Virus record (IMG/VR): IMGVR_UViG_3300015244_001400
Span: 1 to 64,000 of that record
Strand: one strand, 5' to 3'
Source: a virus
Lineage: Duplodnaviria; Caudoviricetes
Length of the DNA stretch: 64,000 nucleotides
Shown here: in pieces, positions 30,664-40,776 of the stretch
Numbering within the stretch: position 1 is the first letter of the stretch
How the letters are laid out: each line of letters opens with the position of its first letter
Position numbers and translations under genes: made by a program
Notes under the pieces: model-generated
Database searches by the model: none
What the model saw: the letters and a program-made list of their open reading frames with translations, nothing else
What the model was told of the DNA's origin: nothing

Positions 30664-32121
30664 ATGGCTACATTAGGAAGCAAGCTTCTCGTAAAAGAGA
30701 TGGAGTGGAATGCCAACATGACTGAGCAATCTCATTTAGGAGCAGCTCTGATTGCTAAACCACACCGTATTATGGGGGAGATGGACAAATTGTTCTCGGC
30801 TCAAAACTATTATTCTGACAATCCAATGTCTTCTTTGTTAATGGGTAACTCTAAAACAGAAGAAACTATTGGTAATACAGAATGGGAATGGGAATTAAAA
30901 GGTGCAAACACTAGACCTCTAGTTGTTGTAGAAAATGTTGAAGTTGCTAGCAACTTGACTCCTGGAAAATTCAAAAAAACTTTCAAGATTAAACTTGATG
31001 AAAACTGGTATTTACCAGGGGATGTTATTATGCCAGGTACTTCTAACAAGAAATACCAAGTGCGTATTCAAAACCAAGGTGTTAAGCATGGTGATGGTAC
31101 AGTTTATACTGTAAGAATGAACTCAGATGACCCACAAGCTTTTATGCCTGTGAAATATTTGAAACCAGGACAACAATGGGGTAAATTATTCTCTCAATAT
31201 GAGGAAGCTGCTGAGCAATCAGGTTCAACTGTATTCAGTTTGCCACTTGCTTTCAGAAACAGAATGTCTAAGTATCGTAAAGAATACAGAATCACTGACT
31301 ATGCTTCAACTGAAGTATTGGCTGTAGCTATTCCTGATTCTAAAGGTGCTTACCACAATTCATGGATGCGTTATGCTGAAGTTGAATATTGGCAACAATG
31401 GTACAGAGAAGTAGAACGTGGATATTGGTATTCAAGATCTGCAGATACTGTATTAGGAGCTAATGGAAGACCAGTAAGAATGGGTCCTGGAATTCAAGAG
31501 CAATTAGAAGATTCTCATCAACATAGATATTCTCACTTAACTGCTAAGTTAATTGAAGAGTACTTACAAGATATTTTCTATTCTAGAGTTAAGCCAGGTC
31601 AAGGTCGTCAAATTAAAGGTTTCACAGGAGAGTATGGTATGTTACAATTCCATAGAGCTATCCAAGATTGGCAAAACAAATCAGGTTTCATTAAGAATGT
31701 TGAAGTATATACTAATAAAGTAGCTAGTTCAGTACACACTAATGCACTTGAAGCAGGTTACCAATTTGTGAAATACAACATGGCAAATGGTGCTTCTCTT
31801 GAGTTGATTCACAATCCTCTTTATGATGATAGAGAAATCAACTTTGAAATTGATGAAGTTACAGGTTTCCCAATTGAGTCTCAAAGAATTACATTCTTAG
31901 ACTTCTCAGGAGAATCTAAAAACTCTAACATCAAAATCATGAACAAGAAAGATGGTTTTGCTTTCACTTATGTTGAAGGTATGTATGGTCCTTATGGTCC
32001 TAAAAATGGTGGTTCTTCTGCACACTCTGGTTCTTACTATGAAATGCACGTTGAAAAATCATGTGGTATCCATATCCATGACATCACTAAATGTGGAGAA
32101 TTGATCTTATCTCGTAACTAA
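30664..32121 (+). CDS. Major capsid protein
   Basis: 485 aa after portal and scaffold, biased (high-expression-like) codon use, followed by a strong terminator. Confidence 0.85.
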   Translation: MATLGSKLLVKEMEWNANMTEQSHLGAALIAKPHRIMGEMDKLFSAQNYYSDNPMSSLLMGNSKTEETIGNTEWEWELKGANTRPLVVVENVEVASNLTPGKFKKTFKIKLDENWYLPGDVIMPGTSNKKYQVRIQNQGVKHGDGTVYTVRMNSDDPQAFMPVKYLKPGQQWGKLFSQYEEAAEQSGSTVFSLPLAFRNRMSKYRKEYRITDYASTEVLAVAIPDSKGAYHNSWMRYAEVEYWQQWYREVERGYWYSRSADTVLGANGRPVRMGPGIQEQLEDSHQHRYSHLTAKLIEEYLQDIFYSRVKPGQGRQIKGFTGEYGMLQFHRAIQDWQNKSGFIKNVEVYTNKVASSVHTNALEAGYQFVKYNMANGASLELIHNPLYDDREINFEIDEVTGFPIESQRITFLDFSGESKNSNIKIMNKKDGFAFTYVEGMYGPYGPKNGGSSAHSGSYYEMHVEKSCGIHIHDITKCGELILSRN

Positions 32122-34973: not shown

Positions 34974-35000
34974 GGAAACTTAAAATAAAGCTATTAGATA

Positions 35001-35033
35001 AAACATCTCTATTTTTATAGAGATGTTTTTTTT
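35001..35033 (+). terminator. Intrinsic terminator
   Basis: AAACATCTCTA-TTTTTA-TAGAGATGTTT followed by a T-tract. Confidence 0.85.
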
Positions 35034-35066
35034 ATTTTGTATATTTGACACTTAAAACACTTTCCC

Positions 35067-36269
35067 ATGGCCTTGAATTACACATACTTAAAATACAAAG
35101 ATACATATACACTTGAAAATACAGGTACTGTGAATCTGACTTACCATGTTAGCAAAGTAACTTGTGAAGCAACTACTGAGATAAAAACAGCTGTAATGGT
35201 TCCTGGACAGATAACTACTTTAAGTTTTCCTGTTGATGGAGATTACTCTGTTTATCTAGAGTCTAGTACTCAAGTAGGAATGCCTTTTATCATCAAACAC
35301 TATAATCACTTACTTATGTCCTTTATCAGTATGGTAGAAGGAATTGTATGTGGATGCAGTAAGTGTGATGAATGTGAGGAGTGTAATAAATGTGAGGATT
35401 ACCTTGGGACACTTTTAAAAGCACAAGCTTTTAATACTTTAAACTACCCTGTTTACCAAGACTATGTGAATCAAATAACTCAAGATTCTCTTTGTGTGTT
35501 TAGTGAAACAGTTCTATGTGGTTTATTACATGAAAAAGTGTATGGAAATCCTGAAGTAAAAGAGGCTATGTTGAGACTAATTAGTTTTTACTACCTAGCT
35601 TTTTACTATCAAGATAAATTTTTAGCTGTAGATGCAGAAGAGAAAGCTTATGTTACAGAGAAATATAAGTTTGATAAGATAGCAGCATGTATGAGAAAGT
35701 TAGGTATTATACCTACAGACCCTTTATTCATGACTACTACCACTACTACTCTTGCTCCTAGTACTACAAGTACTACGACTACTAGTAGTACAACTACTAC
35801 AACTACACCTCCTAGTAGCACAACTACAACTGTGCCTCCTAGCAGTACTACAACAACAAGTAGTACTACAACTCAACCTACTACAAGTACTACAACTACT
35901 TTAGCACCTTGTGCTTTAGATGGTACTGCAGTGGAAGTAACAGGTACAACAACTAGCACAAGCACTAGCACAACTACTGCTCCAAGTACTACTACCTCAA
36001 GTTCAACAACTTCAACTACTACCACTACTGCTCCAACCACAAGTACTAGTACTACAACAAGTACAAGTACAACTACGGAACCTCCTTTAGAGTGTATTAG
36101 TTATACTTTAAATGCTCCTGGTGTTTCAGGAGAATATAATCAAGCAGAGTACATAGATTGTGCAGGACAGCCTCAAGTTATAGAAGCTCATGGATATGTT
36201 AATGCAACTTTCTGTGCAACTGAAATACTATTTGGAATGCCTTTTGCAAATGGTACAGGAGGCTGTTAA
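35067..36269 (+). CDS. Virion-module protein with a Cys-rich N-terminal domain and a ~120-aa mucin-like Thr/Ser/Pro tract
   Basis: GCSKCDECEECNKC; TTTTTTLAPSTTSTTTTSS...TTTEPP at about 35730-36087; small Cys-containing C-terminal domain. Confidence 0.8.
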   Translation: MALNYTYLKYKDTYTLENTGTVNLTYHVSKVTCEATTEIKTAVMVPGQITTLSFPVDGDYSVYLESSTQVGMPFIIKHYNHLLMSFISMVEGIVCGCSKCDECEECNKCEDYLGTLLKAQAFNTLNYPVYQDYVNQITQDSLCVFSETVLCGLLHEKVYGNPEVKEAMLRLISFYYLAFYYQDKFLAVDAEEKAYVTEKYKFDKIAACMRKLGIIPTDPLFMTTTTTTLAPSTTSTTTTSSTTTTTTPPSSTTTTVPPSSTTTTSSTTTQPTTSTTTTLAPCALDGTAVEVTGTTTSTSTSTTTAPSTTTSSSTTSTTTTTAPTTSTSTTTSTSTTTEPPLECISYTLNAPGVSGEYNQAEYIDCAGQPQVIEAHGYVNATFCATEILFGMPFANGTGGC

Positions 36270-36271
36270 AA

Positions 36272-36670
36272 ATGGTTGAGTTAATTAAAAAGATTGCTGC
36301 TTCTAAAGAAGATGTTGTCTTTGTAGGAAGTTTATGTTTGTGGCATTTGGGTCTGGTAATAGACCCTAGAGACATAGATATAGTTGTTAATAGTTTAGAT
36401 GGTTTAGAAGAGTTTGGAGAAATAAAATTTTGGAATACTAAATCTCCTATGAGTGTGAGTAAAAAAAGAGCTCACATAAAAAGAGAAGACTATGATATAG
36501 ATATTTTTATTGAAGAGACTTTACCAGAGCACACTATGATAAGTGGCATTAAGTTTCAGACTTTAAAAGATTTAAACAACCATATTAACTTGGTTATTAA
36601 TACTTCTGAAGGACAGCTTAAAAACATAATGATTGAAAAGAAAATAAAATATTTTAAACCAAGAATCTAA
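36272..36670 (+). CDS. Small nucleotidyltransferase (Pol-beta superfamily)-like protein
   Basis: FVGS-x13-DIDIVV plus a distal DIDIF acidic motif. Confidence 0.6.
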   Translation: MVELIKKIAASKEDVVFVGSLCLWHLGLVIDPRDIDIVVNSLDGLEEFGEIKFWNTKSPMSVSKKRAHIKREDYDIDIFIEETLPEHTMISGIKFQTLKDLNNHINLVINTSEGQLKNIMIEKKIKYFKPRI

Positions 36671-36682
36671 AACTTACAAGAT

Positions 36683-37909
36683 ATGATAGTCTTAATAACA
36701 TTGCCAATAGCAGGACCTTCAACAGGACCTTTTAGCCTTTACTCTAATGTAGATGGTTATACAACTCCTTTTGAAATACAGGTTCCTAAACCACTTTTAG
36801 TAGCTGGCTACACTAGTGTTTCAGTACCTGCAGGAACTACTATAATTCAAGTAAGATCTTTAGGGACTTGTACTAATAGTATTAACTTACCTATTAACTT
36901 ATTAGGGACTAGTACAACTACTACATCAACAAGTACTACTACTGCCCCTACAACCACAACAACAACTGTACCTACTACTACTACAAGTAGCACCACAACT
37001 AGCACTAGTACAACTACAGTTCCTACAACAACTACTAGCACTACTACTGTAGCTCCTATGGTATTAGAATTATATGGACCTTGTAATGAGACAACTGAAT
37101 ATGTTGCATATAATGCAGCTTTAACATCTTTACCTGGAGTTTATACTGCTACAAATGGTTTTCCTTATGAAGTAGTTAGTGCAACTCCTGTGAGTGGTAC
37201 TGCCACAGTTGTTATTACTGATTTATCAAATTATGATAACTTAAACAATTGGCTAACAATTAACTTAGCTTGTCCTGGAGGAACCACTAGTACTAGTACT
37301 AGTACAACTAGTACTACTACTACAGTTGCACCAACAACTACCACAACAACCACTAGTACTACCACAACAACTGAGGCTCCTACCACAACAACTACTACAC
37401 AAGCCCCAGCTGCTTGTAGTGAATTAGAAATATACCCTCCACTTACACCAGGAACTACTCACACAGTAGTGTTCTTGACTTGTGAATGGGGTACTCAAGA
37501 AACAATTAATATTCCTTATGGAGGAACTATGGGTTCTATCTGTGTTCAACCTGGAGGAGTAATTTCAGATAATGGCTCTGCAGTTAATGCAATGACATAT
37601 CCTACTCAAATGGTTTGTATAGGTAACACTACTACAACTACTACAACAACTACTACTCCACCTCCTGCAAATAACTACAGCTTTTTCCGTTGTTCAGGAA
37701 CTGGTATAGCTAGTGTAGTTGTAAGTGAAGCTTCTTTAATTAATGCAGGTATGGCACCAGGAGCAATTCTTAGTTCAATGAACACTATAGAAATAACAGG
37801 TTCAGGTAATGTAAATAGTTGCTATAGTTTTGATGACATGACTTCTGCTTCTCTTACAGGTCCAAGTGTTGTAAGCTTTGATCAATGTGAGTGTTTAAGT
37901 CCAGCATAA
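36683..37909 (+). CDS. Mucin-like protein: small beta/Cys domains separated by poly-Thr tracts
   Basis: Three long Thr/Ser-rich tracts at about 36907-37043, 37282-37400 and 37628-37663. Confidence 0.8.
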   Translation: MIVLITLPIAGPSTGPFSLYSNVDGYTTPFEIQVPKPLLVAGYTSVSVPAGTTIIQVRSLGTCTNSINLPINLLGTSTTTTSTSTTTAPTTTTTTVPTTTTSSTTTSTSTTTVPTTTTSTTTVAPMVLELYGPCNETTEYVAYNAALTSLPGVYTATNGFPYEVVSATPVSGTATVVITDLSNYDNLNNWLTINLACPGGTTSTSTSTTSTTTTVAPTTTTTTTSTTTTTEAPTTTTTTQAPAACSELEIYPPLTPGTTHTVVFLTCEWGTQETINIPYGGTMGSICVQPGGVISDNGSAVNAMTYPTQMVCIGNTTTTTTTTTTPPPANNYSFFRCSGTGIASVVVSEASLINAGMAPGAILSSMNTIEITGSGNVNSCYSFDDMTSASLTGPSVVSFDQCECLSPA

Positions 37910-37910
37910 T

Positions 37911-38837
37911 ATGAGATATGTATGTGCACAACCTGCTTCAAGTTTTTACACTTGGCAAGTAGAAGTAGTTATAAATAACTTTAAAAAACAGGGTGTCAAT
38001 CCTAATAAAATTGACATCCTTTGTGCAATAAATGATAATGTAGTTCCTGAAGAATGGAGAAAATTACAAAATCATTATAATACAGTTAGGTTCTTTTTTT
38101 ACAATGATACTAGAGCAGATAAGAGTTATATACCTTCTATCTACTTTAATCTAATGAGTAACCACATGAAAGCTAATCCTGACTTAATAGGCCAAAGGTT
38201 ATTCTTACATGATAGTGATATAATCTTTACTAGAACTCCAGAAGTGGATTGGGCAATGCCAGGTAAAGTTTGGTACTTAAGTGATACTAACTCTTACATC
38301 AACTATGATTACATCCAACAAAAAGGTAATCATATTTATGAAGATATGTGTGAGATTGTAGGTATAGATAAGTTGATACCTAAATTAATGAATAGTCATT
38401 CAGGAGGAGCCCAGTATATTACTGTTGGAGAAACTTCTGAATTTTGGGATAAAATAGAGAGTGATAGTGTCAAACTTTATTCTTACTTTTGTAAAACAGA
38501 ACATCTCTACAATAAAAAGTTTGAAGGAGATTTTCCTATCCAAAAATGGACTGCAGGGATGTGGGCCTTTCTTTGGAATATTTGGTTAAAAGGTCATGAA
38601 ACAAAAGTGGATTCTAGACTTAATTTTGGTTGGAGTACTGATCATGTTTCTTCAGTAGAAAAGTATTGGATACTACACAATGCAGGTGTGTCTGCAACAG
38701 ATAAAAACATGTTCTTCAAAGGTAATTACATACAGGAGTTACCATATAATAAAGAACTAGTTGTAGATGAAAACAGAGCCAGTTCTTACTATTGGAAGGA
38801 AATTCAAGAGACAAGTAAACAAACAATATTAATATAG
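37911..38837 (+). CDS. GT-A-fold glycosyltransferase resembling HPAT/SGT1 (GT95/GT96) peptide O-glycosyltransferases
   Basis: FYTWQVEVVINNFKK, LFLHDSDIIF (DxD), SGGAQYI, KWTAGMWAF and WILHNAG appear in the same order as the HPAT motifs I recall (YNTWQ...FKK, EPDHII, GWVLEMYAY, IIHY). Confidence 0.65.
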   Translation: MRYVCAQPASSFYTWQVEVVINNFKKQGVNPNKIDILCAINDNVVPEEWRKLQNHYNTVRFFFYNDTRADKSYIPSIYFNLMSNHMKANPDLIGQRLFLHDSDIIFTRTPEVDWAMPGKVWYLSDTNSYINYDYIQQKGNHIYEDMCEIVGIDKLIPKLMNSHSGGAQYITVGETSEFWDKIESDSVKLYSYFCKTEHLYNKKFEGDFPIQKWTAGMWAFLWNIWLKGHETKVDSRLNFGWSTDHVSSVEKYWILHNAGVSATDKNMFFKGNYIQELPYNKELVVDENRASSYYWKEIQETSKQTILI

Positions 38838-38842
38838 TAATC

Positions 38843-39370
38843 ATGCAAGAATTACAAAAGATAAGGAGAGACATAGCCTGGCTTATAGAGCAAACTAAAT
38901 GTCTTACCCAAGAGAGTAACTTAGAGTCTCCTTTGGTGGCTACTGAGTGGTCTCCTAATCATTCTGTGGCAACAGGTAATCCTTACATCTTAGGTTGTTT
39001 TGTTTGGTTTCAAGGTCATGTATATCAAAGTCTGATGGATGACAATTCCTTTCCTCCTACTAATGATTGTTATTGGACAGACTTAGGAGAAGGACATTTA
39101 TTGTTAGAAGAGCAATCTGATTGGAATGCTACTACAGGTAGACCTTTTATTAGAAACAAGCCTATCATTATTAATGATAAGACTTACATACACAATCAAG
39201 TAGTAGCTTCTGCTTCTTGGTTAGTGCAACATGATTTAAACAAATATCCTTCAGTTTCCATAGTGGACTCTGGAGACAATGTAGTTATAGGGGACATTCA
39301 GTATATTGATTTAAACAATATTTTGATTACCTTTACATCTACATTTTCAGGAAAAGCATACTTTAACTAA
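38843..39370 (+). CDS. Tail/fibre-associated protein with a possible CBM5/12-like carbohydrate-binding module
   Basis: EWSPNH...YILGCFVWFQGHVYQSL, QSDWNATTGRPFIRNKP, WLVQHDLNKYPSV. Confidence 0.5.
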   Translation: MQELQKIRRDIAWLIEQTKCLTQESNLESPLVATEWSPNHSVATGNPYILGCFVWFQGHVYQSLMDDNSFPPTNDCYWTDLGEGHLLLEEQSDWNATTGRPFIRNKPIIINDKTYIHNQVVASASWLVQHDLNKYPSVSIVDSGDNVVIGDIQYIDLNNILITFTSTFSGKAYFN

Positions 39371-39384
39371 AAAACAATAAGATC

Positions 39385-40776
39385 ATGATTTACTTAAGTA
39401 ATCTCAATTTAAGCAAGAATCAATTACAGAATGCTGTAATTCATCCTTTGGGTACAGCCCCAGCTAGTCCAGTAGAAGGACAACTTTACTATAACTCTTC
39501 TGCAGGAGTTAAGATGCTATATGTTTATAATGGGACTGCTTGGGTACCTGTTGGAGATATAACAGCTATCTCTTCTACAGAGTCAAGACTTATTGTAACT
39601 AATGGTACAACAGGAGATGTATCTTTATCTCTAGATATTGCAACAGTTGTTGCTAATGGAGGTACAGGACTTGTTACTGCTGATTTACTATATGACTATG
39701 TAGCTGGATTAGATGCTGTCTATTCTATTACTGCAGGTACAGGTATATCTGTTACAGGTACAAGTACAGACCCTATCATTACAAATACTGACTTAGGTTC
39801 TTCTCAAGCTATCTTTAAAAACATAGCAGTAGCAGGACAAAGTACAGTTGTAGCTGATAGTAACAATGATACTCTTACAATAGCAGCAGGAGGTAATGTA
39901 ACAATTACAACTAATGCTACTACAGATACTGTTACAATCTCTTCAACAGATACTAACACTACTTATGATTTAACTAATAGTGCTACTGCAGGAGGTTCTG
40001 CAATCTTGTTAACTGGTTCTGATCTTTCTCAAGATTCTGTGACTATTGTAGGTACTACTAATGAAATTGAGGTGACTCATGCAGCAGGTTCTATCACAGT
40101 AGGTTTACCTAACAACGTAACCATAACAGGTAACTTAACAGTAATTGGTACTACCACTACAAACAATGTAGAAACTGTATCAACTTCTAATGGAGTTATC
40201 TTTGAAGGTAATGCTGCTGATGCTAATGAATTAACTTTAATAGCAGGTACATTAACTGCTGACCAAGTAATTACTTTACCAGATGCAACAGGTACAATAG
40301 CTTTATTAAGTAATATTGGTAATGGTACTCTTACAGTTACTGCAGGTACTGCAATGTCAGGAGGAGGTTCTTTTACAGCTAACCAATCAGGTAACAGTTC
40401 TGTAACAATTAACCATGCTGCTGTATCAAGAACAAATAACACTAGTTCTGCTTCTCCAGGAGTTGGAGGTAGTTTCACAGTTATTGACACTGTAACAACT
40501 TCAACTGAAGGACACATCACAGCAGTTAATACTAAAACAATTACTTTACCAGCTAATAGTGCTACTTCTTTTGCTACTACAATTTCTGTATCAGGGACTG
40601 TTACACATGGTTTAAGTACAAAAGATGTGATAGTACAATTATATGACACATCAACAAATGAAACAGTTTATGCTGATGTAGTGAGAGTAAATACAGCTCC
40701 TTACAACACAATAACAGTTACTTTTGGAAATGCACCAGCAAATCCAATTAGAGTTTTAGTTTCTAAAATAGGATAA
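39385..40776 (+). CDS. Tail fibre protein
   Basis: Thr/Gly/Ala-rich beta-repeat composition; C-terminal VTHGLSTKDVIVQLYD domain. Confidence 0.7.
   Translation: MIYLSNLNLSKNQLQNAVIHPLGTAPASPVEGQLYYNSSAGVKMLYVYNGTAWVPVGDITAISSTESRLIVTNGTTGDVSLSLDIATVVANGGTGLVTADLLYDYVAGLDAVYSITAGTGISVTGTSTDPIITNTDLGSSQAIFKNIAVAGQSTVVADSNNDTLTIAAGGNVTITTNATTDTVTISSTDTNTTYDLTNSATAGGSAILLTGSDLSQDSVTIVGTTNEIEVTHAAGSITVGLPNNVTITGNLTVIGTTTTNNVETVSTSNGVIFEGNAADANELTLIAGTLTADQVITLPDATGTIALLSNIGNGTLTVTAGTAMSGGGSFTANQSGNSSVTINHAAVSRTNNTSSASPGVGGSFTVIDTVTTSTEGHITAVNTKTITLPANSATSFATTISVSGTVTHGLSTKDVIVQLYDTSTNETVYADVVRVNTAPYNTITVTFGNAPANPIRVLVSKIG

Follow-up and report, generated by a model that had tools for sequence, protein, structure and literature searches.

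The 64,000-nucleotide (nt) window analysed here comprises positions 1 to 64,000 of a 90,032-base viral record (IMGVR_UViG_3300015244_001400; CheckV completeness 96%), and it carries on its plus strand a compact four-gene cassette that encodes a protein with threonine/serine tracts (TS1), a nucleotidyltransferase-like open reading frame (ORF; NTase), a second tract protein (TS2) and a glycosyltransferase (GT), in that order and with intergenic gaps of 2, 12 and 1 nt. The crAss-type major capsid gene that lies 5′ of the cassette identifies the phage as crAss-like, and its closest cultured relatives are the Flavobacterium psychrophilum phages of the FpV4 group (82% identity between its capsid protein and the FpV4 major head protein). 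The original prediction, a reading of the bare sequence, had described four tightly packed genes between the capsid and tail-fibre genes, behind a terminator and a putative promoter, with the GT starting 1 nt after TS2. This layout is borne out: all four ORFs are present as described, one nucleotide separates the TS2 stop from the GT ATG, the capsid gene and a Peptidase_S74-bearing tail fibre flank the cassette, and a strong hairpin with a T-run stands ahead of it, 3′ of the gene for a 406-amino-acid (aa) protein that forms the upstream border and 5′ of TS1 (Table 1). The promoter fares less well. A TAnnTTTG box is present, but this motif occurs 111 times in the window against 96 ± 10 expected from shuffles, which is no enrichment, and a sigma-70 scan is likewise at chance level; we therefore regard the promoter as putative only.

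Table 1. Features of the cassette and its surroundings, in window coordinates.
Feature	Position (nt)	Strand	Description
Major capsid gene, crAss-type	30664..32121		PF23898, E = 4e-162
Head-module protein, 406 aa	33753..34973	+	phrog_15060 (E = 2e-147); homolog of FpV4 gp17 (56% identity)
Intrinsic-terminator-like hairpin	35000..35029	+	13-bp stem, 4-nt loop, T-run
TATATTTG, putative promoter box	35040..35047	+	Match to Bacteroidota −7 box TAnnTTTG; 19 nt 5′ of TS1 ATG
TS1, 400 aa	35067..36269	+	phrog_15330 (E = 2e-11); FpV4 gp18 (E = 4e-12)
TS1 tract 1	35730..35912	+	aa 222-282; 35 T, 11 S, 7 P of 61
TS1 tract 2	35934..36092	+	aa 290-342; 29 T, 12 S of 53
NTase, 132 aa	36272..36670	+	Minimal polymerase-beta (pol-beta) type; starts 2 nt past TS1 stop
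TS2, 408 aa	36683..37909	+	72-aa N-domain (conserved) followed by three small domains, with three tracts as joints
TS2 tract 1	36899..37060	+	aa 73-126; 54 residues
TS2 tract 2	37271..37402	+	aa 197-240; 44 residues
TS2 tract 3	37619..37675	+	aa 313-331; 19 residues
GT, 308 aa	37911..38837	+	phrog_4417 ('unknown function'); HDSD at aa 100-103, H256
175-aa protein	38843..39370	+	N-terminal ~110 aa also begin long fibre proteins in relatives
463-aa fibre-like protein	39385..40776	+	phrog_8309
Tail fibre, 1370 aa	40802..44914	+	Peptidase_S74 intramolecular chaperone at aa 1267-1325

The five tracts of TS1 and TS2, between 19 and 61 aa long, together contain about 135 Thr and 36 Ser, and the share of Thr, Ser and Pro in each (68-87%; for example, 53 of 61 residues) gives them a mucin-like composition. 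Thr/Ser tracts are found in no other gene of the window, and all 11 hexa-Thr coding runs of the whole 90-kb genome lie in these two genes (35733-37656), in agreement with the earlier judgement that such low-complexity sequence is here beyond chance. Thr codon use in TS1 and TS2 is that of other genes and the DNA repeats within the tracts are imperfect, from which it follows that the tracts are maintained as protein sequence and do not come down to simple repetition of DNA. In strains from other freshwater runs, every tract insertion or deletion is in-frame (+3, +24, +30 and −3 nt), which marks TS1 and TS2 as real coding sequence.

TS1 consists of a Cys-rich N-domain (aa 1-221), its two tracts and a 58-aa Cys-containing end domain. 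A conserved N-domain of this kind occupies the same place in 11 related loci and in FpV4 gp18, a tract-free ortholog, so that TS1 is one of the core genes of the FpV4-like structural module and has acquired a mucin-like extension. A tblastn search of phage records with the N-domain returned no match, the gp18 homology being seen only by direct blastp, while sequence and profile searches of the PDB gave nothing significant and the protein Atlas no usable match. The domain shared by TS1 and FpV4 gp18 holds a conserved Cys cluster, CGCSKCDECEECNKCEDY (window 35340-35400; TS1 aa 95-110), that could bind metal; in two related loci (L011 and L012) a Gly/Ser-rich insert splits it.

TS2 is built differently. 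In 19 loci its 72-aa N-domain, which has no significant PDB match by sequence or profile, opens a set of tandem paralogs, as many as three in one locus, and these paralogs continue, usually through a Thr-rich stretch, into unrelated ends with Fib_succ_major (E = 1e-25), Lcl_C or PKD domains. This combination of a constant anchor with a stalk and an exchangeable tip would fit particle-attached fibres. Related freshwater strains have lost TS2 domain 2 or 3 in-frame (37044-37298, 37323-37637) with break points in Thr-coding DNA, and the closest relative (L003) retains the first and last TS2 domains only. Such losses suggest that the Thr tracts double as joints for recombination and domain shuffling.

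The GT matches no family in Pfam (hmmscan, E ≤ 0.1) or NCBIfam, its PHROG being its sole assignment, and sequence and profile searches of the PDB gave nothing significant. It belongs to a large family: clustering at 90% leaves more than 1,800 relatives, and clustering at 50% leaves 824 clusters. The AlphaFold model, for which 33 relatives were used (predicted local distance difference test, pLDDT, 95), adopts a GT-A fold that is most similar to LgtC (Z = 14.8, root-mean-square deviation (rmsd) 3.4, 231 residues aligned), followed by glycogenin (14.6), Skp1 galactosyltransferase (14.5), UGGT (14.2) and GlyE (13.7). The model matches 90 chains at Z ≥ 8, those listed being glycosyltransferases and other nucleotide-sugar enzymes, and a Foldseek search with it gave 284 matches at E ≤ 1e-3. 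The nearest folds belong to retaining enzymes of the GT8 type, several with protein substrates. Among 43 relatives (30-55% identity), D103 and H256 are invariant and D101 is conserved in at least 90%, confirming the predicted DxD glycosyltransferase, whose motif reads HDSD. The CAZy family GT8 is not recovered by sequence, the window GT matching no Pfam family at E ≤ 0.1 and Glyco_transf_8 being listed for none of the 43 relatives; the modelled likeness to GT8 is a structural one only.

Members of the GT family are often fused to GT2, GT6, GT11, GT7C and methyltransferase domains, partners that glycan building would lead one to expect. Very many metagenome proteins of 658-665 aa have the GT C-terminally fused to a radical SAM plus SPASM module (P0279, P0121 and about 50 others; loci L047-L061), one cluster alone holding 262 sequences. 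Within the 90-kb phage genome, Pfam models for GT2, epimerase and sugar-nucleotidyltransferase found no match, and consequently a nucleotide sugar of the host is the likely donor.

The association of this GT family with Thr/Ser tracts was quantified in two surveys. Across 80 IMG/VR viral loci with the GT, where −1 is the gene directly upstream and +1 the gene directly downstream, a tract is present at −1 in 52 of 78 loci and at +1 in 0 of 76; counting all neighbours, 98/335 upstream genes have a tract compared to 6/418 downstream genes (Fisher p = 1e-21). The second, independent survey covered 80 bacterial-genome loci whose GT is 30-50% identical to the query, with a tract defined as a run of at least six Thr/Ser. 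Such a run occurs in 42 of 77 genes at position −1 and in 0 of 78 at +1; further upstream, it occurs in 0/199 at positions −2 to −4, in 13/48 at −5 and in 21/33 at −6. Position −6 is the major capsid protein (PF05065) and position −1 the tail-tube protein (PF04630), and the C-termini of both are poly-Thr tails (for example, TTTTTTTTSA). The co-occurrence of GT and Thr-rich genes by which the original prediction could be checked is thus present in both surveys.

The same pattern of GT plus Thr tract is found in cultured phages of seven genera, the carriers being Enterococcus phiFL1A, whose head gene and tail gene both end in poly-Thr coding runs, Clostridium phiCTP1, Lactobacillus Semele and iLp84, Staphylococcus RQ1, Arcanobacterium TPWB06 and Chryseobacterium MA9V-3. 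Once the tracts are masked, the proteins that carry them upstream of the GT group into 22 sequence clusters. FpV4 provides a matched control: its genome, from which the GT is absent, has 0 hexa-Thr coding runs in 88 kb, compared to 11 here. The GT is tied to Thr/Ser-rich genes far beyond chance, across unrelated phages. Loci within each survey are related, and the p-values (1e-21 and 7e-17) therefore overstate independence; recurrence across unrelated carriers is the stronger argument.

Two of the cultured phages show a further peculiarity. In RQ1 and TPWB06, the tail-tube gene (L083 2729-3172; L087 2664-3257) ends in TTTTTTTP-stop, and an overlapping ORF in another frame (L083 3120-3431; L087 3220-3426) continues with 70-100 residues of poly-Thr. 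This arrangement looks like a programmed frameshift within the Thr-coding run, which would yield a long-tailed minor form of the tail protein.

Taken together, we favor reading the cassette as a phage-encoded module for the O-glycosylation of poly-Thr tracts in structural proteins, with a probability of roughly two in three (0.66). According to this reading, the soluble 308-aa GT-A enzyme would take a nucleotide sugar from the host and transfer the sugar, in the cytoplasm, onto Thr (and Ser) hydroxyls in the tracts of TS1 and TS2, the two tract genes transcribed just ahead of it. TS2 is one of a family that combines a conserved N-terminal domain of about 70 aa with a Thr-rich stalk and exchangeable distal domains (lectin- or adhesin-like in relatives), and the distal domains would be displayed at the particle surface on a glycosylated, extended stalk. 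We infer the tracts to be the acceptor, and likewise the type of sugar, the presence of TS1 and TS2 in the virion and the purpose of the coat, be it shielding, adhesion or stiffening. The mucin system of the original prediction survives here in part: its glycosyltransferase, now a GT-A enzyme, the coupling to Thr/Ser tracts and the NTase fold stand, the NTase as a dedicated partner does not, and the kinship to HPAT/SGT1 comes down to a weak hint.

Several observations weigh against an O-glycosylation module. No glycan, virion proteome or enzyme assay was found for any member of the GT family. PDB profile searches matched neither TS1 nor TS2 to a solved virion protein, so the case for a virion location is one of gene position and architecture. 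Within a survey the loci are interrelated, so that the counts overstate independence, and at least 10 GT loci have no nearby tract. One viral contig (L089, 195-5387) has four consecutive tract genes and an NTase homolog that are followed by an exonuclease and not by a GT. A search for the GT in the contigs behind this locus and L093, where tract genes and an NTase likewise occur with no GT close by, found none, these fragments being 27% and 6% complete; with its contig only 27% complete, the GT of L089 may lie elsewhere. Fused GT forms in Chitinophaga and Pedobacter genomes mostly have no Thr-rich neighbours, and the GT family may therefore have other acceptors. Finally, RNA libraries yielded contigs over TS1 and TS2 and over parts of the NTase and GT, which is no proof of transcription. 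Since DNA may be present in such libraries and genes cannot be ranked by contig depth, we count neither this cover as expression nor its gap at 38440-39150 as a finding.

The cellular fusions are found on Chitinophaga, Pedobacter and Mucilaginibacter chromosomes (L109, L114, L115, L117, L146 and others) as proteins of 570-590 aa in which the GT is joined to a GT7C-type domain, mostly without poly-Thr genes alongside; two of these loci have a tiny ORF with a short Thr run alongside, which may mean another acceptor class.

The tracts could instead be plain, unmodified linkers or tails, with the GT acting on a host envelope glycan or on phage DNA and its adjacency to tract genes reflecting a shared ancestry of gene order; if the target were the host envelope, then the GT would exclude other phages or change the serotype. 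The relatedness of the surveyed loci, the tract-free GT loci and the cellular fused forms described above all lend themselves to this explanation, and GT2, one of the fusion partners, is typical of polysaccharide synthesis as well. Against it stands the adjacency to 22 unrelated protein clusters among Bacillota, Actinomycetota and Bacteroidota phages. Capsid and tail-tube proteins carry their poly-Thr tails at the very end, where these join nothing and so are not linkers; in addition, TS1 has gained a tract that is absent from its ortholog in the GT-less FpV4. As for the proposed targets, inspection of the GT sequence by eye saw no signal peptide or membrane segment, and the DNA glucosyltransferases known from T-even phages have a GT-B fold, whereas the present enzyme is GT-A. 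A DNA-modifying role was set aside on this fold, the placement in a structural operon and the coupling to Thr tracts. Overall, we judge unmodified linkers with an unrelated GT target to be rather unlikely. A different objection accepts modification by the GT and denies the particle: TS1 and TS2 would be intracellular or released proteins, such as decoys or adhesins freed at lysis, and would be modified for that role. The PDB profile searches, which gave nothing significant for either protein, are compatible with this possibility, and no proteome or structure places them in the virion. In the opposite direction, the conserved gene with the TS1 N-domain has one set position in FpV4-like phages, with head genes on one side and fibre genes on the other, the tract carriers in GT relatives are capsid and tail-tube proteins, and a conserved TS2 N-domain with swappable ends would be the usual build of a particle-attached fibre. 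A role away from the particle is therefore unlikely in our assessment.

The part played by the NTase was weighed separately. The earlier assignment of the small ORF as a nucleotidyltransferase is upheld: G19-S20, D34-I-D36 and D77, the motif of a minimal pol-beta-type NTase, are invariant in 25 homologs, and its model (pLDDT 92.8) superimposes on TM1012 over 120 of 132 residues (Z = 12.2, rmsd 2.5), with ANT(2″)-Ia (10.6), MenT1 (9.5) and LnuA (9.3) next and FKRP a weak match (5.7). It has its fold and catalytic carboxylates in common with TM1012, ANT(2″)-Ia, LnuA and the MenT toxins, but there is no sequence-level family; Pfam, PHROGs, NCBIfam and PADLOC returned none, and PDB searches by sequence and profile nothing significant. 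Sugar-nucleotide synthesis was set aside as a role, its fold being the wrong class for sugar pyrophosphorylases. The NTase could be a working member of the module that adds a nucleotidyl or phospho-linked group to sugars or Thr hydroxyls, much as ANT(2″) and LnuA adenylylate sugar hydroxyls and LicD/FKRP-type enzymes decorate glycans. Its place inside the operon, 2 nt past TS1 and 12 nt ahead of TS2, its invariant catalytic residues, the amino-sugar hydroxyl nucleotidylating enzymes among its nearest folds and the three of eight viral homolog loci that adjoin TS2-family genes all point in this direction. It is present, however, in only 4 of 80 GT loci; the other five of the eight loci adjoin tape-measure or DUF285 genes with neither GT nor tract nearby; the NTase is rare, with 40 homolog clusters compared to more than 1,800 for the GT; and its fold is equally similar to the tRNA-targeting toxins MenT and TglT. 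Such membership strikes us as quite improbable, and the description of the NTase as a dedicated partner has to be given up. The NTase is probably active and a companion of tail genes, and it is probably not a core part of the glycosylation module, in which a role for it is possible.

The surroundings of the cassette follow the FpV4 plan, with the same gene order from the scaffold gene to that of the 406-aa protein, for which sequence and profile searches of the PDB gave nothing significant. Downstream, fibre proteins of relatives that begin with the N-terminal ~110 residues of the 175-aa protein are 584-1566 aa long; here, this fibre anchor is a separate short gene, followed by separate fibre genes. 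Near-identical DNA occurs in public runs labelled mainly as freshwater and also as aquatic, estuary and groundwater, and a megablast search of the cassette against 50,697 phage records returned zero matches.

If the glycosylation module is real, then several consequences follow. Mycobacteriophages are the only phages whose own enzymes have been shown to glycosylate the particle, and in them the modification alters antibody recognition (Freeman 2023, as cited in PMC12363180). A different and much more widespread enzyme family (824 clusters at 50%, no Pfam model) would do the same job, with an acceptor that is legible straight from the sequence as a Thr run. Hundreds of 'hypothetical' phage genes could receive an annotation; in phages of enterococci, staphylococci and lactobacilli, which therapy and dairy either use or fear, heavily modified surface proteins could be flagged; and long hydrated stalks with exchangeable binding domains in freshwater crAss-like phages could be explained. 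The GT and its tract could also offer a simple tag-and-enzyme pair for glycoengineering. The reading is directly testable in cultured phages. A broader proposal, to which we give even odds, is that one small soluble GT of this unannotated family is enough to O-glycosylate any cytoplasmic poly-Thr tag, that crAss-like phages, sipho- and myophages of Bacillota and phages of Actinomycetota use it portably to sugar-coat capsids, tails and fibres, and that it is independent of the mycobacteriophage system and perhaps distant kin of HPAT. The original prediction knew of no description of such a system in crAss-like phages, and in the literature we searched no paper was found on the GT family or on glycosylated crAss-like virions.

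How does the cassette compare with known systems? Phage-encoded GTs modify the phage's own structural proteins in the mycobacteriophages Che8, Corndog and Myrna (Freeman et al. 2023, as related in PMC12363180 and PMC12619734). As in that system, the candidate acceptors in Bacillota relatives of the GT are the C-termini of capsid and tail-tube proteins. The enzymes themselves differ: the GT is not homologous to Che8 gp108, gp109 or gp110 (hhalign probability 0.1-0.3%), and there are no mycobacteriophages among its 77 tblastn matches. The Che8 GT genes lie at the far end of the genome, away from the acceptor genes, whereas here the GT directly follows its candidate acceptor, and the ends of the Che8 capsid and tail-tube proteins are not poly-Thr. 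Glycosylation in mycobacteriophages has been shown, while the present cassette is known from sequence and models.

The plant and algal HPAT/SGT1 enzymes (GT95/GT96; PF23452), which act on peptide hydroxyl groups, had been invoked as kin. By hmmscan the window GT has no PF23452 match; 2 of 43 relatives do (best E = 1.3e-4), and HPAT is annotated on 10% of the members of a neighbouring Atlas cluster, so that the kinship shrinks to a weak hint. A six-frame search of the phage genome for PF23452 and PF23741 (DUF7164) gave no candidates, a weak test in which the controls were equally silent. Giant viruses also encode GT-A enzymes of their own, which glycosylate the capsid and fibrils of the particle, and PBCV-1 A064R and mimivirus R699 are fold matches (Z = 10.9 and 10.1); the GT family and these enzymes both include multi-domain proteins fused to methyltransferases. 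Giant viruses differ in having eukaryotic hosts and other linkages and acceptor sites, and the fold likeness is weaker than that to GT8. With the GT8 enzymes LgtC and glycogenin, the GT has in common a fold over about 230 residues, the Asp-x-Asp motif and a late His, which are the residue types that bind Mn2+ in GT8 enzymes, yet it is only 8-10% identical to them and has no GT8 Pfam match at E = 0.1.

In function, the cassette would come closest to the pathway by which Gram-positive bacteria O-glycosylate serine-rich repeat adhesins in the cytoplasm, in which a GT-B pair, GtfA/GtfB, primes the adhesin and accessory Sec export is needed. Both systems would combine the Ser/Thr-rich stalk of an adhesin-like protein with adjoining genes for soluble cytoplasmic enzymes, and GlyE, a GT8-type enzyme of the pneumococcal serine-rich-repeat pathway, is among the best fold matches of the GT. 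By this analogy, the cassette would perform a comparable task within a phage, with a lone GT-A enzyme and no export step.

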